From NCBI GenBank assembly GCA_964615415.1, contig CAZTNI010000001.1, positions 25,290 through 89,289 of the forward strand: 64,000 nt of DNA, given 5' to 3'. Source of the stretch: an uncultured Candidatus Saccharibacteria bacterium (GTDB lineage: Bacteria > Patescibacteriota > Minisyncoccia > Phycocordibacterales > SBAW01). The position numbers and the translations under genes were made by a program. Below are positions 5,560 through 60,010 of the stretch, piece by piece. The notes under the pieces are model-generated. The model saw only the letters and a list, made by a program, of their open reading frames with translations, was not told the DNA's origin and made no database searches. Each line of letters begins with the position of its first letter. Positions within the stretch are counted from its first letter, which is position 1.

Positions 5560-5933
5560 GAACCACGCCCACGCTGCGACGCGCACTCTTTGGTATAGGC
5601 AGTGTTTTCCTTGTTGTTGGTATCGTCGGGTACGGTTTCTTTGAAGCGCGGAGACTTGTGCAAGGTCCGATAATCACTATACTTGCCCCAGTGGACGGAA
5701 GCGCCACTTCTTCCCCCACCGTCACTATTTCAGGTATCGCAGAAAACGTTTCGTTCTTAAGCATCAACGATCGCGCAATTTTAACTGACGAGCAGGGCCA
5801 TTTTTTAGAACACATTGCCCTGCCTCAAGGAGTGTCCGTGCTTTCTGTCGCAGCAAAAGATCGGTTTGGTCGCAGTACTTCACGTCTGATCCACATTACT
5901 ATCGTAACCTACTGTCCATTGGGCTCGGCATAA
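5556..5933 (+). CDS. hypothetical membrane-anchored protein
   Basis: 125-aa ORF overlapping the ftsK stop by 4 nt (ATGA). Single N-terminal TM ([16 protein letters not shown]). Confidence 0.45.
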
Positions 5934-5952
5934 ACAGCTCACCTACACATAT

Positions 5953-7035
5953 ATGGCAAAATTTGGCAAAGATAAGGAAAAGAAAGCTCCTCGCAGCGAA
6001 CGAGACAACAGCTCAATTGAAGCAGCTATCCGCGAGATCCAGACCAAGTTCGGTGACGAAGCGATTATGAAGCTAGGTGACGCTCCAAAGGTGGACGTCG
6101 ATGTTATTCCTTCAGGCTCTATTGGTCTCGACTGGGCACTTGGCATTGGTGGCTACCCTCGCGGCCGCATTATCGAAATTTTTGGTCCAGAATCATCAGG
6201 CAAGACTACCCTCACCCTGCACGCCATCGCTGAGGCTCAGAAAAAAGGCGGCGTATGCGCATTTATCGACGCAGAACATGCGCTCGACCCAGACTATGCA
6301 CAAAAAATTGGCGTAAACATCAACAACCTCCTTGTGTCACAGCCAGATACAGGCGAACAAGCACTCGAGATCGTTGAGTCGCTCGTACGCTCCGGCAAAC
6401 TCGACATTATTGTTGTCGACTCCGTAGCTGCTCTTACACCGAAAGACGAGATTGAGGGCGAAATGGGCCAAAGCCATGTAGGTAAACAGGCTCGCCTCAT
6501 GTCTCAAGCACTTCGCAAGTTGACCGGTATCGTCTCGCGCTCAAAGACGGTAGTTATTTTCATCAACCAGATCCGCATGCAGATCGGCGTTATGTTTGGC
6601 AACCCAGAAACAACACCGGGCGGCAAGGCACTGAAGTTCTATACCTCAGTACGCCTTGATATCCGCCGCATTGCACAGATTAAAAAAGGTGAAGAAGTCG
6701 TTGGCGGACGCCACCGCGTAAAGGTTGTTAAAAACAAAGTTGCGGCTCCCTTCCGCACCACTGAATTTGACCTCATGTACAACGAGGGTATCTCAACCGA
6801 AGGCGAACTGCTTGCACTTGGCGAACGCCTTGGCGCAATACAGAAAAGCGGCTCTTCGTACAGCTTTGGCGAAGAAAAACTCGGCCGTGGCTACGACGCA
6901 GCACGCACATACCTTCGAGAAAATAAAAAGGTGTCTAACGACCTCCTGAAAGCAATCAGAAAAGGTCTTGAGGAAAACGCCTCAAGCGGTAGCAACGCGG
7001 GTAGTGGTGAAGGATCGAGCGACTCGGACGAATAG
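5953..7035 (+). CDS. recA: recombinase RecA
   Basis: [39 protein letters not shown] and the downstream RecA core are conserved. Acidic C-terminal tail. Confidence 0.95.
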
Positions 7036-8001: not shown

Positions 8002-8571
8002 ATGTTGGAATATAACGAAATTCTCCCTAAAAAGGTTATTTTACTCGACGGCGAACCGTACGAAGTGCTTGACGCACACGTCTTCCGCAAGCAGCAGCGC
8101 AAGCCGGTTAACCAGACCAAGCTTCGCCACCTTATTACCGGCAAGGTAACTGAACAGGCGTTCCATGTATCTGAAAAGGTTGAAGAGGCTGAACTCTCGA
8201 GCAAGGAGGTAAAGTACCTCTTTACCAACCGCGGCGAGTTCTGGTTCTGCGACCCAAGCAATCCTGCAGATCGCTTTAAGCTCGACGCTGCAGTAATCGG
8301 TTCACAGTCTGCGTTCATGAAAGTAAACTCAACAGCCGAGGCGATTATCTTTGATGAAAAAATTATCGGCTTACGTATGCCTATTAAGGTTGATCTTGTT
8401 GTAAAAGAAGCTCCTCCTGCGGTACGCGGCAACACCGCACAAGGCGGCACCAAGCAGATTGTGCTTGAAACAGGCGCCACAGTGAACGCTCCCCTCTTCG
8501 TAAACGAAGGAGATATTGTACGCATCAACACACAAGAAGGAGTCTACGTTGAGCGCGTCGACAAGAAGTAA
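8002..8571 (+). CDS. efp: elongation factor P
   Basis: 189 aa. KVILLDGEPYEVLDAHVFRKQQRKPVNQTKLRHLITGKV is a typical EF-P N-terminal KOW domain. Confidence 0.9.
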   Translation: MLEYNEILPKKVILLDGEPYEVLDAHVFRKQQRKPVNQTKLRHLITGKVTEQAFHVSEKVEEAELSSKEVKYLFTNRGEFWFCDPSNPADRFKLDAAVIGSQSAFMKVNSTAEAIIFDEKIIGLRMPIKVDLVVKEAPPAVRGNTAQGGTKQIVLETGATVNAPLFVNEGDIVRINTQEGVYVERVDKK

Positions 8572-8579
8572 CAAGGGCA

Positions 8580-8649
8580 CAAACTAAAAATACCCCTGTG
8601 CTCCGGAGAGATATACCTCACTCCTGCACACAGGGGTATTTTTAGTTTG
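8580..8649. terminator. bidirectional terminator-like hairpin (21-bp perfect stem) with a conserved 28-nt loop; copy 1 of a repeated structured element
   Basis: caaactaaaaatacccctgtg [ctccggagagatatacctcactcctgca] cacaggggtatttttagtttg. Lies between convergent efp and rpsR. The loop is 24/28 identical to the loop at 30830-30857. Confidence 0.6.
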
Positions 8650-8660
8650 CGAGTACGCTA

Positions 8661-8852
8661 CTAGCGAACGATAAACGGCATGAGCGCCATGAAGCGTGCG
8701 CGTTTAATCGCCTGAGAAAGTTCACGCTGTGCTGCCGCAGTAAGACCAGTGCGGCGACGTGGCATGATTTTGCCATGTGGATTAACGAACTTCTTCAAAG
8801 TCTCGATGTCTTTGTAATCAATATGTTGGATTTGTGTGTATTCTTTTTGCAT
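8661..8852 (-). CDS. rpsR: 30S ribosomal protein S18
   Basis: 63 aa. [29 protein letters not shown]. Confidence 0.9.
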
Positions 8853-11327: not shown

Positions 11328-11832
11328 TAGATCCTTTTATTACTTTTCCTAGATAAGGTAGTAATTGTTTTTTATATTCTGCAAAAGTTTTTTCATCTTC
11401 AGCCGTGAGTTTTCCTATTTTTTGAAGCTCAATTTCAAATACATTTCCAACTCCTTTCACCGTGTCTAAATTAAAAACCGTATTCCCTTTTTTCCAAAGT
11501 TCCCGAGTTTTTTCTACCACTGAAAAAACTCCCAACACCTGCTCAAGGTATGGCAGCAAATCCTTATCTTTTATCGAGTAGAGTTTTACTTCTGCAACCG
11601 TGCCCTTCTTGTCTCCAAACGCGGGGCGTGTGTAATACACTGCGGTTTGAGTACTATTCTCGAGTCTAATTTTTAATCGAGCAGGCACACCAGACCGTTT
11701 CGGCAGGTTAAAAAAGTAATCTTTTTGTTTTTTAACTTCCTGCCTTTGAGCGCCTAGCTCTTTCAAGATTTTCCTCAGTGGAACGAAATCCTCACAAAAA
11801 TGTTTGAGTTCGAGATTGGTTTTTGATTGCAT
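11305..11832 (-). CDS. CYTH-like (CyaB/thiamine-triphosphatase-like) domain protein
   Basis: 175 aa with ELK (LELKHF), RLKIRLEN and VFEIELQ motif pattern suggestive of CYTH. Weak. Confidence 0.4.
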   Translation of the reverse strand: MQSKTNLELKHFCEDFVPLRKILKELGAQRQEVKKQKDYFFNLPKRSGVPARLKIRLENSTQTAVYYTRPAFGDKKGTVAEVKLYSIKDKDLLPYLEQVLGVFSVVEKTRELWKKGNTVFNLDTVKGVGNVFEIELQKIGKLTAEDEKTFAEYKKQLLPYLGKVIKGSNADLAKR

Positions 11833-11835
11833 GAT

Positions 11836-13269
11836 TTAGTCTTTGCGGGGGAATAAGTTTTCTGGCTTTTTGTTTGCTGCAATTGCTGCGAGAATTTTTT
11901 CTGAAGTTTCTGGCAGGAATGGCGAGAGTAATTGCGCTGCAGCGCCAAGTTCATGCACCAGGTTTACAATAAGCTCCTTCCCTTTTTCTTTATCAGTCTT
12001 TATTACCTTAAATGGTTCGGTTCGTGTAATTTCCTGGTCGATAGCTTGAACACGTCGGAACACTTCAGATATCGCCTCGTTTACTTGATAATTCTTAAAT
12101 GCAGCAGTATACGCCTCAGGATATACAACTTTTTCTATCACAACAGGAGCATCGAGATGTGTTTGCGCAAGCTGCATAATGCGTGCAGCCAAGTTACCAA
12201 GACCGTTCGCCAGGTTTGCGTTATAAAGCTCTTTAAATTGCTCCATCGTAAAGTCGCTGTCTTCAAACGGGTGGATATGGCGCACCAGGTAATAACGAAG
12301 TGCGTCCGTGCCATAGTCCTTCGCTACTGCAATTGGGTCAATAACATTGCCGAGCGATTTACTCATCTTTTGTCCCCCACTCGTAATGAAGCCGTGGTAG
12401 ACCACTTTGTCGGTATTTTTTACTCCACCCGACATGAGCATTGCTTGCCAGATAATAGACTGGAAGCGCACCTGGTCTTTACCAGCCACCTGTACAACCT
12501 CTCCATCCTCCCAGAACTTTTTAAAGTTCCCCTCTTTGTCGTCTGGCCAGCCTAACGTAGAGATGTAGTTCGTAAGCGCATCGAACCACACGTACATCAC
12601 CTGCGTCTCATCATCCGGCACCGGAATACCCCAACTCATGCGAGCTTTCTCGCGAGAAATACTGAAATCTTCAAGCCCTGCTTCTATAAAATTAATTGCT
12701 TCTTCGCGACGCCAGTCCGGCAGCACCACCTCTTCATTTGCAAGATAGGCAAGCAACTTATCTTTGTATGCACTCAAGCGGAAGAAATAATTCTCTTCTT
12801 CGATTTCCTGAAGCTCCATGTTCGGATGGTTTGGGCATTTTCCGTCTACCACATCGCTCTCGCGCAAAAAAGCTTCATCGCCTACGCAGTACAGACCCTT
12901 ATACTTCTTTTTGTAAATATCTCCCGCCACAGCGCAGCGCTTCCAGAGTTCTTGTGCGGCGTATATATGCAACGGGTCAGTGGTGCGAATAAATGCGTTA
13001 TAGGAAAGATTGAGAGCATCTTTCAATTTGGCAACCTCGCCTGCATAAAAATCTACATATGCCTGCACTTCCTCGCCTGCTTCGGTTGCTTTTTGGAAGA
13101 TTTTCTGTCCGTGTTCATCGGTCCCCGTAGTAAAAAACACTTCGCGTCCCAAGAGTCGCTGATACCGCGCAATAGCATCTGCCTGCACTATTTCCAGCGC
13201 AAAACCAATATGCGGAGCTGTGTTCACATACGGGAGCGTCGTGGTGAGGTAAAAAGGCTTGTTTTCCAT
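11836..13269 (-). CDS. metG: methionyl-tRNA synthetase (short form, no C-terminal tRNA-binding domain)
   Basis: TTLPYVNTAPHIGFALEIVQADAIARYQRL, TGTDEHGQKI and KMSKSLGNVIDP. The HIGH motif reads HIGF, verified codon by codon. Confidence 0.85.
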   Translation of the reverse strand: MENKPFYLTTTLPYVNTAPHIGFALEIVQADAIARYQRLLGREVFFTTGTDEHGQKIFQKATEAGEEVQAYVDFYAGEVAKLKDALNLSYNAFIRTTDPLHIYAAQELWKRCAVAGDIYKKKYKGLYCVGDEAFLRESDVVDGKCPNHPNMELQEIEEENYFFRLSAYKDKLLAYLANEEVVLPDWRREEAINFIEAGLEDFSISREKARMSWGIPVPDDETQVMYVWFDALTNYISTLGWPDDKEGNFKKFWEDGEVVQVAGKDQVRFQSIIWQAMLMSGGVKNTDKVVYHGFITSGGQKMSKSLGNVIDPIAVAKDYGTDALRYYLVRHIHPFEDSDFTMEQFKELYNANLANGLGNLAARIMQLAQTHLDAPVVIEKVVYPEAYTAAFKNYQVNEAISEVFRRVQAIDQEITRTEPFKVIKTDKEKGKELIVNLVHELGAAAQLLSPFLPETSEKILAAIAANKKPENLFPRKD

Positions 13270-16511: not shown

Positions 16512-18455
16512 TTATTTTGGCGCAACAATGTCCACTCCACCAGGACCACTGTCTCCTACTAGGCGTGTTGTCGACGGATTTGCCGTAGCGCGTACCGGCA
16601 CCTGCACAAAACGATCTTGGCCGGTTAACACTACTTCGCTTGTTAAGTCTGGCGACTTACCCACCTGGCTCGTACTTGGCACAATCGTTACCTGGAAGGC
16701 AGCCTGTAGTGCTGCTTGGGTGTACCCTACACCCGCTTTAATGTCACCAATGTTCCATCGCACAGTGCGACTTGCTGCGTCGTAGGTTATGCCGCTTCCT
16801 GAAGGACTCGACATAAATTGTACATAAGACGGCAGCGTTGCAGAGACAGACGCATTCGCAACGGTGTTTGCAGAGTTTTTCACTCCCCAGACAATCGTGT
16901 ACGAAGTCGCTTGTTCGGCGCGCGGCGGCATTGGTCCGATATTTTGGAAACCGCCCGTGTAGTGCAGCGTTTTTACATCAAGCGTTGCTTGGGACGCAAG
17001 CTGCACTCGCGCGGTCGCCGCAGATGCAACCGATTCCGGCGCCCCGCCACCTCCCTGACGCACACCGCGCACCTGTAAATTAAGTTCGATAGTTGGGTTT
17101 GTAATAAGCACGCCTGCTTCTCCGGGCTTCAGTGTACTAAATGAGAAGTGGAAGGTTCCTGTTTCGCCTGGCTGTACCGTCGCAAGAGAATTGTTTTGAT
17201 CTTTAGACCAAATAATCGCAGTTTGTGCGGATTGGTAAAATCCATTTCCGGCACTAATAGCATTTTTGTTAAGAGCAGGACCAGCAAATGACAAAATTAA
17301 CTCCACGTTTGAGACCGGATCAGGGAGATTGTTCTTCCACGTCACCGTACCTTCGAGCTGCTCGCCCGCAGCAACAGAGATAGTTTTTCCTGTTTGCCCC
17401 TCGACTGCGATCGTTGCAGAAATAAACGGCTGCCGCACGGTAACAGTCTGCGGCATGATAAGGAACGGGACTTTAATTTTTGTATCGGTCTGGTCGCTGT
17501 TTGACCCCGCAAAGAAGCGGAAGACGCGTTCATCACCATCTTGTCCTTCAAGGGCACCGGTAATTTTAATAGTGCGCGATGCGCCCGGCTGTAGTGTCCC
17601 TAGTCGCCAAAACGTACCCCCTGCATCTGCCTGTGGCTGTGTTGTTCCGACCGTAAATCCAAATGGATACTGTCCTTGCAGCACTAAATTCTCGACAGGC
17701 GTTGTTGCATTAGAACGCACGGTCACGTCCATAGAAATCTCACCCCCCGTTGTTGTGTCAGTTGGCGCAGATACAGTAATTGAAACGGGAGAGGAGCCTA
17801 TCGTGTACGTCGTTTCCGTTTGCTTTTGGAAAACTGCGTTTGAATTTTTAACACTATATTCAAGCGTTGCACGGATTGTTTGCGTTTCCCCTTCTTGTCC
17901 AAACACAAGAGCAGAAGCTGTTTGTTTTATTTGTTCACCTGCAGGAATCGTGCCAATAGTGTGACGGTCGTACGTCAGCTCCTGCGCTGGGTTAGCAGCA
18001 CTGCGCGTGCCATCCGGGTACGTCAAAATAAGATCCGCAAGCTCGAGGTCAGTTTGGTTGCGGTTGGTAATAATAAACTGGAATGTTGCTTCCTTTCCTC
18101 CATCAATCAAAGACGGTGCCACTATTTCAATATCGATGTTCTGTGGAGAGATAGTATTCACTCCTCCTAAAATCATATAAGCGGCGGCGGCAAGTGACAG
18201 GAAGAAGAACGCGGCCGAACCGAGCAAAAATTTAGTAGCCATAGACATACGAGATTTGGTTTGTAGTGGTTGTGACGGCTGAGGTACACCACTTGTTACA
18301 CCTTCCGGCGTTGCAGCAGGTTCCCAAGCACGAGGAGCATCTGCAGTGCTCGGACTAAGGCTCGAGCGGTCTTCTGCAGGCGGTTTAATATCACTTTGAC
18401 GAGCATAGAGCGCGCGTTTAAGCTTCTCTACCCCGCTTTTCTCTTCGGGAACCAT
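16512..18455 (-). CDS. hypothetical membrane-anchored protein with large Thr/Ser-rich extracytoplasmic domain
   Basis: 647 aa. ~70-aa cytoplasmic N-terminus, one TM (FLLGSAAFFFLSLAAAAYMIL), then an all-beta-like extracellular region. Confidence 0.55.
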   Translation of the reverse strand: MVPEEKSGVEKLKRALYARQSDIKPPAEDRSSLSPSTADAPRAWEPAATPEGVTSGVPQPSQPLQTKSRMSMATKFLLGSAAFFFLSLAAAAYMILGGVNTISPQNIDIEIVAPSLIDGGKEATFQFIITNRNQTDLELADLILTYPDGTRSAANPAQELTYDRHTIGTIPAGEQIKQTASALVFGQEGETQTIRATLEYSVKNSNAVFQKQTETTYTIGSSPVSITVSAPTDTTTGGEISMDVTVRSNATTPVENLVLQGQYPFGFTVGTTQPQADAGGTFWRLGTLQPGASRTIKITGALEGQDGDERVFRFFAGSNSDQTDTKIKVPFLIMPQTVTVRQPFISATIAVEGQTGKTISVAAGEQLEGTVTWKNNLPDPVSNVELILSFAGPALNKNAISAGNGFYQSAQTAIIWSKDQNNSLATVQPGETGTFHFSFSTLKPGEAGVLITNPTIELNLQVRGVRQGGGGAPESVASAATARVQLASQATLDVKTLHYTGGFQNIGPMPPRAEQATSYTIVWGVKNSANTVANASVSATLPSYVQFMSSPSGSGITYDAASRTVRWNIGDIKAGVGYTQAALQAAFQVTIVPSTSQVGKSPDLTSEVVLTGQDRFVQVPVRATANPSTTRLVGDSGPGGVDIVAPK

Positions 18456-29420: not shown

Positions 29421-30806
29421 ATGCAATTTGAAGATCTGAAACATGTACGTCGCCCCCTCTCGGGCAATGGCAAAGTAGTAGTACTCGACACCGGCGCGCT
29501 CATAACGCCAGAAGCAAGCGCTATGCTCCAAGCGCTCCACTCGCGCTCGATCGGCGGAGTCGACTCCCACCTCGTAAAGCTCGCACAAAAAGGTGCTAAA
29601 AACTTCATGGACACGTACTACGTGGGGTACGGCGATAAGTCTATTGGCGACTGTGGCACGACAACCATCTTCGTTGAAGGAGTGTCCATGCTCGTTGCGA
29701 AAGCGATCCAGGACTCCCAACTTTATAACGGGCAGGAATCTTCGACACGCTACATCGACTTTACCTTCCAACCATTTGCAAACCCTGCAGGCACGCAAAA
29801 AGGCGCAGAAACATTAGAGTCACTCCGCACGTTTTACCTCCACGGTTTAGACGTAATGAAAGCCGAGCTCGCCAAGCGCCACCCGAAAGGCGCCGAGGAA
29901 GACGAGAAGGTGTGGCAAAAAGCAATTAACGCCCGCGCATTCGACATCATGCGCTCGTTCCTCCCTGCAGGTGCCGCAACAAACCTCGCATGGCATACCG
30001 AGCTGCGTCATGCTGCAGACCAGCTTGCACGTCTACGTAACCACCCACTTCCGGAAGTACGTGAAGTCGCTGCAGCGGTTACCGAAGCGCTTGACGAAGC
30101 GTACCCGAGTTCGTTTAAACAAAAACGCTACCCTGCTACCGAGGAATACACCCACAAGTGGATGGAAAGCTCGTACTACTACAACGACAATCCAGGAAGC
30201 GGCGCGAGCCTTGCTTCGACCGTACTCCACGGCATTACGCTCGAGAGAAACGCTATAGACTACAACTTACTGCGTTCGTATAAAACAATTCTTGAAACAC
30301 GCCCCGTCAAAACCGAACCGCCGAAGTTTCTTGCAGAAGCTGGCACTATGCGCTTCTCCTTCTTGCTCGACTTCGGATCATTCCGCGACTTGCAGCGCCA
30401 CCGCTCGCTCGTGCAGCGCATGCCGCTTTTAACCGACAAGCGCGGGTTCCACTTGTGGTACCTCGAGCAGATGCCGGAAACACTCAAGCAGGAAGCTATT
30501 GGCTTCCTTGCTCGTTACAGCAATGCAGTTGATGCACTTAAGCTTTCGTCGGTACTCACGCAGTACTACATTCCGATGGGCTACCAGGTGAGCTTGCGTA
30601 TGACGGGAGACCTCCCTGCACTTATGTGGGTTGTGGAACTTCGCTCAGGTATTTCCGTCCACCCAACGCTCCGCATCGCTGCACAGCACATTGGACAGCT
30701 CATGCTTGAGCAGCTCGGCGGCGCAGGCTTAAAACTCTACATAGACGAAAGCGAAGACCGCTTTAACTACAAGCGCGGCACGCAAGACATAGTCGAGAAA
30801 CAGTAG
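29421..30806 (+). CDS. thyX: flavin-dependent thymidylate synthase ThyX-like, apparent fused tandem duplication
   Basis: C-terminal half has FRDLQRHRSLVQRMP (ThyX RHR motif). N-terminal half has a degenerate copy (TTIFVEGVSMLVAKAIQDSQLYNGQESSTRY vs consensus fTF.ie.sRav.rQlvRHR..s.sqqSqRY). 461 aa, about twice a normal ThyX. Confidence 0.6.
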   Translation: MQFEDLKHVRRPLSGNGKVVVLDTGALITPEASAMLQALHSRSIGGVDSHLVKLAQKGAKNFMDTYYVGYGDKSIGDCGTTTIFVEGVSMLVAKAIQDSQLYNGQESSTRYIDFTFQPFANPAGTQKGAETLESLRTFYLHGLDVMKAELAKRHPKGAEEDEKVWQKAINARAFDIMRSFLPAGAATNLAWHTELRHAADQLARLRNHPLPEVREVAAAVTEALDEAYPSSFKQKRYPATEEYTHKWMESSYYYNDNPGSGASLASTVLHGITLERNAIDYNLLRSYKTILETRPVKTEPPKFLAEAGTMRFSFLLDFGSFRDLQRHRSLVQRMPLLTDKRGFHLWYLEQMPETLKQEAIGFLARYSNAVDALKLSSVLTQYYIPMGYQVSLRMTGDLPALMWVVELRSGISVHPTLRIAAQHIGQLMLEQLGGAGLKLYIDESEDRFNYKRGTQDIVEKQ

Positions 30807-30809
30807 AAA

Positions 30810-30877
30810 GTAAAAAATAAAAGCCCGTGCTTTGGAGAGATATACCTCACTCCGACACACGGGCTTTTATTTTTTAC
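30810..30877. terminator. bidirectional terminator-like hairpin (20-bp stem) with conserved 28-nt loop; copy 2 of the repeated element
   Basis: gtaaaaaataaaagcccgtg [ctttggagagatatacctcactccgaca] cacgggcttttattttttac. Lies between convergent thyX and rplK. Confidence 0.6.
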
Positions 30878-30887
30878 TTCAGTTTAA

Positions 30888-31310
30888 TTATTTTACATCA
30901 ACACCCATTGAGCGGGCAGAACCAGCAACAACTTTCATTGCTTGCTCCATCGTGTGCGCATTGAGGTCTGGCATTTTGCGCTCTGCGATAGCCTGTACCT
31001 GCGCCTTTGTAAGCGTACCGATCTTTGCAGTATTTGGCTTACCACTTCCCTTCTCTTTACCGAGGGCCTTAAGGATAAGACCAGAAACCGGAGGAGTCTT
31101 GAGGATAAATGAGTAGGTGCGATCCTCGTATACAGAAATCTCTGCAGGGATCATGTCGCCACGCATGTCTTTAGATGCCTCGTTGAATTTCTTGATGAAT
31201 TCACCGATGTTGATGCCGGCAGGACCGAGCACCTGACCCATGGCAGGGGTCATAGCCGCAGCGCCACCCGCCGCAACAATCTTGATTTTCTTGACTATCT
31301 TCTTTGCCAT
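30888..31310 (-). CDS. rplK: 50S ribosomal protein L11
   Basis: KIVKKIKIVAAGGAAAMTPAMGQVLGPAGINIGEF.... Confidence 0.95.
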   Translation of the reverse strand: MAKKIVKKIKIVAAGGAAAMTPAMGQVLGPAGINIGEFIKKFNEASKDMRGDMIPAEISVYEDRTYSFILKTPPVSGLILKALGKEKGSGKPNTAKIGTLTKAQVQAIAERKMPDLNAHTMEQAMKVVAGSARSMGVDVK

Positions 31311-31328
31311 ATGCCGAGTGATATTACC

Positions 31329-31880
31329 TTATATACGTTTGATTTGCAAAAAGTCCAATTCTACCGGGGTTTCGCGGCCAAACATAGCCACAAGGACCTT
31401 TACCTTGCCACGACTCTCGTCCACTTCACCCACCTTACCATCGAGGTCTTTAAACGGACCATCGACAATAACAACCGAGTCTCCAACCGTAAGGTCAATA
31501 GCATGTTTTACTGAACCCTCTGCAGCCTGCATGCGGCCCAAGAGCTCATCCACCTCCTTTTGCTGGAGCGGCACTGGGTTTACACCAGAACCAACGAAAC
31601 CGGTTACGCGCGGCGTGTTGCGTACGACGAACCACGACTGGTCGTCTACGATCATCTCCACAAGCACGTAGCCTGGGTAGATCTTTTCATCTTCCTCGAC
31701 GCGGCGACCGCCTTTAATTTTGACCGTGTGTTCTGTTGGTACAACCACGTTGAAAATCTTCTCTTGAAGACCGAGAGATTCGATGCGCTGCTTCAGGTTG
31801 CGAGCAACTGCGTTTTCATACCCTGCATAGGTGTGAATCGCATACCATGCCCGACCGAGACTAGAGTCTTGTTTTGCCAT
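31329..31880 (-). CDS. nusG: transcription termination/antitermination factor NusG
   Basis: WYAIHTYAGYENAV (NGN domain), C-terminal KOW GDSVVIVDGPFKDLDGKVGEVD. Confidence 0.9.
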   Translation of the reverse strand: MAKQDSSLGRAWYAIHTYAGYENAVARNLKQRIESLGLQEKIFNVVVPTEHTVKIKGGRRVEEDEKIYPGYVLVEMIVDDQSWFVVRNTPRVTGFVGSGVNPVPLQQKEVDELLGRMQAAEGSVKHAIDLTVGDSVVIVDGPFKDLDGKVGEVDESRGKVKVLVAMFGRETPVELDFLQIKRI

Positions 31881-31900
31881 AGCTACAATGAAAAAAGTGA

Positions 31901-32072
31901 ACTAAATAATGCGCTTAAGGATTGCTGAGAAGAGGTAGTCCAAAAGACCGAGGTATACCGCTACTGCGAGCGACAAACCGATAACAACAAGACTGTATGC
32001 GATTACTTGTGCACGAGTAGGCCACGATACATGCTTGAGCTCGCCCCGAACGTCTTTAATGTAGTTAAACAT
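31901..32072 (-). CDS. secE: preprotein translocase subunit SecE
   Basis: Hand-translated 56 aa: MFNYIKDVRGELKHVSWPTRAQVIAYSLVVIGLSLAVAVYLGLLDYLFSAILKRII. Below the ORF-track size cutoff. Canonical secE-nusG-rplK order. Confidence 0.7.
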
Positions 32073-36403: not shown

Positions 36404-36497
36404 GTGGAAACTACTTTAGCACGGAGACATACGTCTGTCTAGAAAATGGTCTGGCCCGAGAGGTTCCAAGCCGATACGGGAGAACCGAGGACCTTTT

Positions 36498-37232
36498 CTA
36501 GGCAGATGTTGTCGCAGATGATAAACGCTGCTCTGCCTCTACAAAATCTTTAGGCAACGGGGCCTCAAAAAGTACTTCCTCCCCTGTTTCCGGGTGCCTA
36601 AAGGTAAGCGAGAGCGCATGGAGTGCGAGGCGCTCAAAACCAAGGATAGCTGGCCGCCCTGGCGCATACATAGAGTCTGCAACGATAGGATGTTGGATAG
36701 AAGCAAAGTGTACACGGATCTGGTGTGTACGGCCTGTCTTTGGAAACACTTCTGTATATGACGCTTCTTTAGTGCGGGCAATAACCCGAAATGCGGTTTG
36801 TGCGTCTCGCAACGTACCCTTCGCATCGCGCTTTGCCGTACGTGGACCTTTTCCGCCTCGACCTGAACCGATTGGTTTGTCGATTATGCCGCGTTCATCT
36901 TTAAGCTCGCCGTAAACAAACGCGCGGTACGCTTTCTTCACTTCTCGATTTTGAAATTGCGCTTTAAGCACATCGAACGCTTCCTGTGTGCGTGCCGCCA
37001 CCAACACACCCGACGTTTCGCGGTCGATGCGGTGCACAATACCCGGACGCTCAATAAGCGAACCGTCTTGGAGTCGCTGCTCTTCCCCTACTCCCTTTAT
37101 TTCTGGATATTCGGCAACAAGCCAGTCGACAAGAGTCTTCCAGTCATGTTTACCGTCGGCATGTACAGCAAGACCTGCAGGTTTATTAAGTACCAAGATG
37201 GAATCGTCTGCGTAGATGACTGTCGGCTGCAT
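36498..37232 (-). CDS. RluA-family pseudouridine synthase
   Basis: GIVHRIDRETSGVLVAART catalytic motif. Start set at the internal MQPTVIYADD because the longer track ORF overlaps tRNA-Val. Confidence 0.8.
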   Translation of the reverse strand: MQPTVIYADDSILVLNKPAGLAVHADGKHDWKTLVDWLVAEYPEIKGVGEEQRLQDGSLIERPGIVHRIDRETSGVLVAARTQEAFDVLKAQFQNREVKKAYRAFVYGELKDERGIIDKPIGSGRGGKGPRTAKRDAKGTLRDAQTAFRVIARTKEASYTEVFPKTGRTHQIRVHFASIQHPIVADSMYAPGRPAILGFERLALHALSLTFRHPETGEEVLFEAPLPKDFVEAEQRLSSATTSA

Positions 37233-39675: not shown

Positions 39676-39708
39676 ACAAATAAACCCGGCTTAAGCCGGG
39701 TTTATTTG
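39676..39708 (+). terminator. rho-independent terminator (14-bp perfect stem)
   Basis: caaataaacccggc ttaa gccgggtttatttg followed by ttcg. Confidence 0.7.
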
Positions 39709-39856
39709 TTCGCACGTGATCGCCGGGGGCGAAATCGAAAGCCGGAGCGCGACGGCGCGAGGCAGGGTCGTGCGAATTTTCACCAGAAAATTACGCCTGA
39801 CCGATTCCTACTTTGAGTTGTGGGCCACACACATGACCACAAGAGTGTCTGTTTAT

Positions 39857-58111: not shown

Positions 58112-58139
58112 AAAGCTCCGCGCGTAAGCGCGGAGCTTT
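58112..58139. terminator. bidirectional rho-independent terminator
   Basis: aaagctccgcgc gtaa gcgcggagcttt. Confidence 0.7.
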
Positions 58140-59978: not shown

Positions 59979-60010
59979 AAAAACCCCGGCATGCCGGGGT
60001 TTTCTTTTTA
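59979..60010. terminator. bidirectional rho-independent terminator
   Basis: aaaaaccccgg catg ccggggttttt. Confidence 0.7.

Follow-up and report, generated by a model that had tools for sequence, protein, structure and literature searches.

Two long hairpins that fill convergent gene junctions in the analysed stretch of 64,000 nt (the window) are probably copies of a dispersed, selfishly propagated, DNA-level palindromic mini-element of the Patescibacteria (CPR), and within the window both copies would most likely serve as bidirectional terminators. The family is present in several lineages, where it is gained and lost at orthologous sites, flips the orientation of its core, occupies both intergenic and in-frame positions, decays, and occurs as variants at hotspots. 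The inference drawn from these patterns is that the element acts and spreads as DNA rather than as a sequence-specific RNA.

Anatomy and setting of the two window copies

Each copy consists of a perfect stem around a 28-nt centre, with a stem of 21 bp in copy 1 (caaactaaaaatacccctgtg, ctccggagagatatacctcactcctgca and cacaggggtatttttagtttg, in that order) and of 22 bp in copy 2 (aagtaaaaaataaaagcccgtg, ctttggagagatatacctcactccgaca and cacgggcttttattttttactt). The copies, their parts and the flanking genes are as follows.

8002-8571, plus strand: efp (Pfam EFP_N and Elong-fact-P_C); stop 8 nt ahead of copy 1
8580-8649, plus strand: element copy 1, whole hairpin; covariance model R1, 88.9 bits, E 2.8e-17
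8580-8600, plus strand: 5' arm of copy 1, CAAACTAAAAATACCCCTGTG, made up of an A-run, a C-rich run and TG
8601-8628, plus strand: conserved 28-nt core of copy 1, CTCCGGAGAGATATACCTCACTCCTGCA on the plus strand, containing the inner hairpin
8629-8649, plus strand: 3' arm of copy 1, T-run bearing, the exact reverse complement of the 5' arm
8661-8852, minus strand: rpsR (S18), the final gene in rpsF-ssb-rpsR; its end is 11 nt away from copy 1
29421-30806, plus strand: gene for a Thy1 (ThyX)-domain protein of 461 aa (Pfam); ends 1 nt ahead of copy 2
30808-30879, plus strand: element copy 2, whole hairpin; model R1, 88.2 bits, E 4e-17
30808-30829 and 30858-30879, plus strand: 22-bp arms of copy 2
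30830-30857, plus strand: core of copy 2, CTTTGGAGAGATATACCTCACTCCGACA
30888-31310, minus strand: rplK (L11), the final gene in secE-nusG-rplK; its end is 8 nt away from copy 2

The two hairpins and their perfect stems, first proposed in the initial annotation, are real, the second copy having been widened to 30808-30879, and the reported loop identity of 24/28 is borne out by mismatches at 4 of 28 positions between the two centres. The copies are the top two inverted repeats of the window by length, and both strands give folding energies between -40 and -48 kcal/mol (z-scores from -8 to -12). The 20-mer GGAGAGATATACCTCACTCC matches the window exactly twice, both times on the plus strand, against a chance expectation of 0.00 (100 shuffles, with up to 3 mismatches allowed). 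The conserved block is really 34 nt long, GTGCT-YY-core-KR-CACAC, and the core has an 11 + 6 + 11 nt layout in which the near-inverted arms GGAGAGA and TCACTCC surround the asymmetric spacer TATACC. The centre had originally been described as a conserved 28-nt loop; its conservation stands, whereas the open loop does not, the centre being predicted to fold into a small hairpin of its own (GGAG/CUCC, an A.A mismatch, GA/UC and the hexaloop TATACC) that is separated from the long stem by a 4x4 internal loop.

No further copies of the family were detected in the 64-kb window by covariance model R1, which was built from the aligned family copies. A segment carrying both core ends (GGAGAGATAGTATTCACTCC, 18145-18164, plus strand, inside a 647-aa ORF) is without a flanking stem, scores 15.6 bits (E 1.3) and was dismissed as a chance match, and the other window inverted repeats with 25-47-nt spacers have centres unrelated to the core. 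Separately, a 13-bp inverted repeat with a 47-nt GC-rich centre, unrelated to the element family, lies close to a tRNA cluster at 36434-36506, with an L19-like gene on one side and a pseudouridine-synthase-like ORF on the other. The possibility, raised at the outset, that a known Rfam family would explain the element has fallen away: the whole window returned only tRNAs at gathering thresholds, and a permissive scan of 8500-8750 returned only sub-threshold, stem-driven microRNA look-alikes (30.8 bits vs. a threshold of 80).

The flanking genes originally named, efp/rpsR and thyX/rplK, and their convergent arrangement agree with Pfam domains and gene positions. The stop codons of the four genes lie 2-12 nt from the stem bases, and the hairpins occupy the whole intergenic gaps. 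Copy 1 is arranged as ...AAAAATACCCCTGTG[core]CACAGGGGTATTTTT..., and copy 2 as ...AAAAGCCCGTG[core]CACGGGCTTTTATTTTTT..., both with a GC-rich stem and an A-run/T-run on both strands; the AAA/TTT columns are kept in 9 of 10 aligned family copies. The suggestion of bidirectional termination is upheld by convergent junctions that are filled and by a GC-rich inner stem which, on either strand, has an A-run ahead of it and a T-run behind it. Judged from this arrangement, both copies most likely act as bidirectional intrinsic terminators, at efp/rpsR and at thyX/rplK, where a GC-rich inner stem followed by a U-run would be formed on either transcript. The short apical loop of a terminator, typically 3-8 nt, is replaced here by a centre of 28 nt that is itself folded, and a consensus terminator scan did not call the full element hairpin. 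Ordinary short-loop A-run/T-run hairpins occur at other convergent junctions of the window (39676-39709, 58112-58139 and 59980-60003). A terminator role cannot be general to the family, because other copies lie inside genes or between atpE and atpF.

The surroundings of the two copies offered some additional observations. The secE-nusG-rplK genes (30888-32072) end at the convergent junction with no rplA (L1) after rplK, unlike the usual rplK-rplA arrangement; some Parcubacteria have been reported to lack L1. In the neighbouring 'thyX' ORF (29421-30806), the Thy1 domain covers residues 56-229 only, and the C-terminal half has no Pfam match. An independently assembled Logan contig from the same organism (L001, 10571-10627) stops exactly at the last base of the core, and the palindrome, or mixed orientations in the population, may act as a breaker of short-read assemblies.

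The family in other genomes

A scan for an 18-mer of the core in 185,579 species genomes, a collection that does not include the source genome, gave six matches, of which two are true copies: one between rpmA and typA in the Patescibacteria isolate REEB120 (L010), and one between a sigma-like gene and a small ORF on a contig titled Saccharibacteria (L007). The remaining matches (L005, L006, L008 and L009) show no hairpin and were set aside as chance matches. The same scan of JGI metagenomes added L011, L013, L015, L016, L017, L023 and a truncated L024. The core is therefore known at at least nine places beyond the window, in other Patescibacteria contigs, which refutes the proposal that it occurs here by chance, and its recurrence at nine other places with unrelated arms shows that the window pair is no coincidence. 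The 28-nt cores of L007, L010 and L015 are identical to that of copy 1, and the stems of L007 and L010 are different. Among 11 copies compared by context, six are located between convergent genes (a count that includes L017, whose upstream side is not confirmed), one lies between the co-directional genes atpE and atpF (L011), and four lie inside genes.

Metagenome matches without a hairpin were rejected, both for L012, L018, L019, L022 and L025 and for L014, L020, L021 and L026, which form one coding-gene group. The 18-mer lies in a conserved coding region common to these last four contigs and the Nitrospirae genome contig L009, and this gene is a recurrent false positive for motif searches with the core. 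Viral contigs gave no match for the window core type, and their six matches to a related core variant were all due to chance. A literature search for palindromic or MITE-like elements in Patescibacteria/CPR returned nothing relevant, and the family is apparently a so far undescribed small DNA repeat of the Patescibacteria.

The initial annotation emphasized that the two stems differ while remaining fully paired, which is correct for the sequences; as proof of compensatory change, two copies are worth little because the A-run/T-run arms of terminators are complementary by construction. The covariation in a ten-copy alignment is convincing, with double changes at 20 of 22 stem pairs and one-sided (G-U) changes at none. 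Paired cells amount to 94%, vs. 71% in shuffles, with the observed values reached by 0 of 500 shuffles, and G-U pairs are absent from approximately 200 paired cells. The consensus including the closing pairs is YTG-YTYY-GGAGAGATATACCTCACTCC-KNCR-CAR, in which the 20-nt core, the TG...CA closure and 4 further internal-loop positions are invariant, and the core is located at the hairpin apex in every aligned copy. Element length ranges from 55 to 75 nt. When copies from unrelated sites are compared, identity is 60% over the inner 13 nt of the arms (A-run, pyrimidine run and TG) and 32% over the outer 11 nt; the likeness of the inner arms could stem from a preference for certain targets or from a short inner stem carried along with the core. 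No consistent direct repeats were seen next to the copies; in L011 (GCGCGC) and L013 (AGCTAGCT), the tips of the stem are palindromes in themselves, which would allow a reading with or without target-site duplications.

Turnover of the element was captured at the efp/rpsR site itself. The EF-P of the window has matches of about 80% identity to proteins whose sources label them Patescibacteria or Parcubacteria group bacterium. Relatives with 80-86% identical EF-P carry ordinary short-loop terminators after efp (L003 and L004), and in a further relative (P0019) the efp-rpsR spacer is just 1 nt. In L016, the element is present at the orthologous rpsR/efp junction between flanking genes that are 75.5% identical over 1353 nt; its central 44 nt are identical to copy 1 at 43 of 44 positions in inverted form, the orientation of the core relative to rpsR being opposite in the window and in L016, and its outer arms differ from those of copy 1 and are still perfect. 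In L003, the ordinary terminator after efp has a basal stem (ATCCCCCGTG...CACGGGGGAT) similar to the arms of copy 1 (ATACCCCTGTG...CACAGGGGTAT), which fits a core that was set at the apex of a native terminator.

Copies inside genes were in frame and stop-free, in uvrC (L013), in the amylo-1,6-glucosidase (glycogen-debranching) gene at two different positions (L015 and L023), and in tgt (L024); the ORFs are continuous through the element in all four, and homologues exist without the inserts. The L023 product exceeds all homologues by exactly 24 aa, equal to 72 nt or 22 + 28 + 22. For UvrC, 120 homologues with 63-76% identity to the query were aligned (the query's 100% self-match included), and the hotspot corresponds to the linker between RGKEL and FGPFPHG, which is 8-12 residues long in about half of the sequences and has 16-24 or more extra residues, belonging to a few peptide families, in the rest. 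Two of the linker peptides, RDEREPYS and RAPVHLSG, are encoded by opposite strands of one core, and both core orientations are therefore found at the uvrC site. The DNA of four of the UvrC-homologue genomes contains perfect hairpins with related cores. The uvrC core of L028 is CTCCGGAGAGATGAACGGGAGCCCTACTCC, in reverse orientation; that of L030 is GGGGAGATAAACGGCACCCC, with one A-T pair changed to G-C relative to the window core and the A.A mismatch kept; and that of L027 is more distant and ends in CTCACTCC. Decayed remnants are seen in L031 and L029. The uvrC copy of P0123 has the window core type.

A second hotspot, found by an unbiased hairpin scan, is a single tgt position; L027, L028, L030 and L024 carry a hairpin there and L032 does not, with both core orientations represented. 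The third is debranching-enzyme site 1, where related cores are found in other genomes, with inserts such as SGEINTTP and SGEMNATPP. Within L027, L028 and L030, the uvrC and tgt cores of one genome are more alike than the cores at the same site across genomes, and the REEB120 assembly contains at least three core types; overall, the cores vary in the middle and their ends are conserved.

Filled and empty sites were compared at tgt, where the 5' arm of the L027 hairpin encodes EQAPESP vs. the native EQAPEDG in the empty L032 for a net gain of approximately 16 residues, and at uvrC, where the filled/empty pairs P0236/P0217 and P0205/P0189 (88-89% identical) differ by a gain of approximately 17 aa after a common AQxxF or AGQKSF. 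Both comparisons fit an insertion consisting of the core and an inverted duplicate of the flank that is natively found upstream. The whole-hairpin gain of 72 nt in L023 does not fit this pattern of one native arm; there may be more than one insertion route, or later deletions may have blurred the picture.

Another candidate filled/empty pair, L032/L033 (99% nucleotide identity), was rejected since its 93-nt uvrC indel is not a simple hairpin of the family. This in-frame insert in the uvrC linker (L032 10377-10469 vs. L033 4853) includes an internal direct repeat as well as a small hairpin with a T-run and an A-run. In the same contigs, D-Ala-D-Ala ligase is represented by two ORFs (172 and 130 aa) in L032 at 11440-12417 and is intact (325 aa) in L033 at 5823-6800. 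Perfect 16-17-bp hairpins with 18-31-nt centres unrelated to the element core were also seen inside uvrB and uvrA (L028 4787-4836 and 7920-7972; L029 1879-1941), and gene-internal palindromes may be a general feature of these genomes.

Proposed mechanism and alternative explanations

The initial annotation suggested an additional function for the hairpins, such as a protein-binding site, a small-RNA family or a REP-like mobile mini-element. The mini-element is the best fit among these, as the core recurs on unrelated arms elsewhere in the Patescibacteria, occupies some orthologous sites and is missing from others, changes its orientation, and lies in frame in genes. A sequence-specific small RNA or RNA protein-binding loop is not supported. 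Presence and absence, decay, hotspots at permissive sites, and the preference for convergent junctions argue together for a palindrome that propagates at the DNA level.

In the proposed mechanism, the core would land at the apex of A-run/pyrimidine-run hairpins, i.e., native terminators, or alternatively just past an A-run/pyrimidine-run motif within a gene, in which case the native 5' flank would be copied in inverted form to give the 3' arm. The most economical route would be gene conversion from another copy or template switching guided by microhomology, with a structure-specific enzyme as an alternative, and intrastrand template switching of the same kind would keep the arms complementary and flip the centre. 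Gene-internal copies would persist only where a surface insert of 16-24 residues is tolerated. Some results count against the mini-element. Neither the surroundings of the copies nor the unannotated ORFs of the window (ORF inspection, with Pfam on ten) yielded a transposase, recombinase or reverse transcriptase, and the means of spread is purely inferred. The copy number is low (2 in 64 kb, and true copies of the 18-mer in 2 of 185,579 species). Additionally, the identical 28-nt core in the Saccharibacteria-labelled contig and in Paceibacteria-like genomes, and the 43/44 identity at a site with 75% identical flanks, could equally mean strong purifying selection for a host function.

A more far-reaching proposal, to which only a limited probability is assigned, is that the 28-nt core is itself the propagating unit and is written into hairpin apices by a dedicated, structure-specific DNA activity of the Patescibacteria. 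The core would be recognised on extruded hairpins by a nicking or recombining enzyme, or would be a reverse-transcribed or ectopically copied template; the targets would be terminator apices and A-run/pyrimidine-run motifs in genes, and the second arm would be made by fold-back copying of the flank, with the core flipped. If true, sequences would here spread in a new way, with the inverted repeats provided by the target.

The main rival to the selfishly propagated mini-element is a DNA site with a host function, which is kept in play by the extreme conservation of the core. Under this explanation, which is considered unlikely, the core would be the double-stranded or cruciform site of a host protein (a recombinase, a structure-specific nickase, or a chromosome-organisation or DNA-uptake factor) and would be maintained by selection, with the arms aiding extrusion. 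The 11 + 6 + 11 layout, with near-inverted inner arms around an asymmetric spacer, is suggestive of such a site, and its ability to work in either orientation would fit the flips. The core is also conserved far beyond the 75% identity of the flanks and recurs across lineages, and the likeness of the cores at two sites within one genome appears as if they co-evolved with a trans factor. These features must be balanced against copies that sit at seemingly arbitrary permissive spots in housekeeping genes and have decayed in some lineages, close relatives that are without copies at the same sites, and at least three core types that coexist in the REEB120 assembly. Furthermore, Pfam analysis of ten unannotated window ORFs gave no candidate protein, and the right arm of the core is presumably unlike the XerD arm in dif sites.

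An RNA motif recognised by its sequence at the 3' ends of mRNAs, whether a protein-binding or processing hairpin or a small RNA, could co-regulate translation-related operons; in the window, the copies come after efp or thyX when read on one strand and after operons for ribosomal proteins when read on the other, the L010 copy follows rpmA, the folds are very stable, and the inner hairpin is kept, the L030 variant combining a compensatory A-U to G-C change with the retained A.A mismatch. Recognition of an RNA by its sequence is nevertheless quite improbable, because both core orientations occur at the same site (relative to rpsR in the window vs. L016, and inside uvrC and tgt, where there is one mRNA strand only) and G-U pairs are never used in the ten copies; there is also no Rfam match, and in relatives the element is missing from the same 3' ends. 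Only a small chance is given to the core being a scar, or the point of attachment, of some larger mobile element (an insertion sequence, intron or integrative element) that targets hairpin apices, with empty or excised sites being those that are seen. Insertion sequences that target palindrome loops are known, such as IS1397 in REP loops, the invariant TG...CA closure resembles transposon termini, and the core is always found at a hairpin apex; however, approximately 250 kb of related loci contained no interrupted core and no neighbouring mobile-element gene, the viral collection was without a true copy, and the cores vary in the middle and are conserved at the ends, unlike a uniform scar. Practically no weight is left to two ordinary terminators that are alike by chance or local duplication and have no wider meaning. 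The positions and the A-run/T-run arms are typical of bidirectional terminators, and the explanation is refuted by the identical core with unrelated arms at nine other places in independent assemblies; the chance expectation in the window is 0.

Comparison with known palindromic systems

Patescibacteria have tiny genomes and few recognised mobile elements, yet this small palindrome is recurrent across their lineages, where it supplies terminator-shaped hairpins at convergent operon ends and 16-24-residue inserts in UvrC, Tgt and debranching-enzyme hotspots. The combination of an invariant asymmetric centre, free complementary arms and frequent flips points to an uncharacterised hairpin-centred, template-switch-like process of spread or maintenance. 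As a marker, the covariance model can be used for annotating terminators and lineage-specific protein inserts; the hairpin itself may break assemblies (one contig end was observed) and can seed spurious ORFs. The family additionally provides a testable system for the origin and persistence of palindromes inside genes.

Two general processes, as distinct from families of elements, are quasipalindrome template-switch mutagenesis and, in rolling-hairpin replication, the flip/flop inversion of hairpin termini. They would explain the strictly Watson-Crick arms, the conversion of a flank to an inverted copy and the inversion of the centre, and would leave the origin and conservation of the Patescibacteria core unexplained. 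Other systems were set aside. A Xer/dif-type site (28 bp as 11 + 6 + 11, single copy near the terminus) has the layout of the core, but the element has two direct copies 22 kb apart as well as gene-internal copies, and its core arm is presumably unlike the XerD arm consensus. A CRISPR repeat is at odds with two copies only in the window, 22 kb apart and without an array, and a bulge-helix-bulge intron, a k-turn and ribosomal bypass were discarded on anatomy (a symmetric internal loop, and in-frame, stop-free read-through).

The closest likeness at convergent gene ends is to SPRITE, a small interspersed repeat resembling an oversized terminator with an 18-bp duplex and AAAA/TTTT ends, which is strongly enriched between convergent genes near their 3' ends, has no known transposase or recognised target duplication, and was suggested by its authors to be co-opted as a terminator (2011, PMC3049150). 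SPRITE is confined to S. pneumoniae and S. mitis, and in-frame copies in genes are not reported (PMC3049150). Both are dispersed terminator-like palindromes at convergent gene ends; SPRITE copies are alike over their whole sequence, whereas the Patescibacteria element is alike only in its 28-nt apex and has site-specific stems, and the two have no sequence relationship.

For copies inside genes, the Rickettsia palindromic elements (RPE; Ogata et al. 2000) provide a parallel. RPE are described as lying in frame in unrelated housekeeping genes of a reduced-genome bacterium, with peptides compatible with protein function and a mobilising mechanism that is unknown (summarised in PMC10969869). The Patescibacteria element is likewise a palindrome in frame in protein-coding genes that is read through, as seen in L013, L015, L023 and L024. 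Compared by description only, RPE are approximately 100-150 bp long and conserved along their length, while the Patescibacteria element is 55-75 nt long, is conserved only at its centre and belongs to a different phylum; its intergenic copies also double as terminator-like hairpins, unlike RPE as described.

REP/REPIN sequences share with the element their character as short extragenic palindromes, often at convergent ends, that persist at orthologous sites and vary in concert within a genome. In REP/REPIN the arms are conserved (5' GTAG), the loop is free, copies number in the hundreds, and a RAYT gene is present; in the Patescibacteria element the arms are free and the centre is conserved, GTAG is absent, and no Y1 transposase match was obtained among the window ORFs tested. 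MITEs have conserved terminal inverted repeats, whereas the outer arms of the element are 32% identical, the inner arms 60%, and only the centre is invariant. The description as REP-like holds only in the sense of a dispersed palindrome, and the conservation pattern is the reverse of that of REP, REPIN and MITE.
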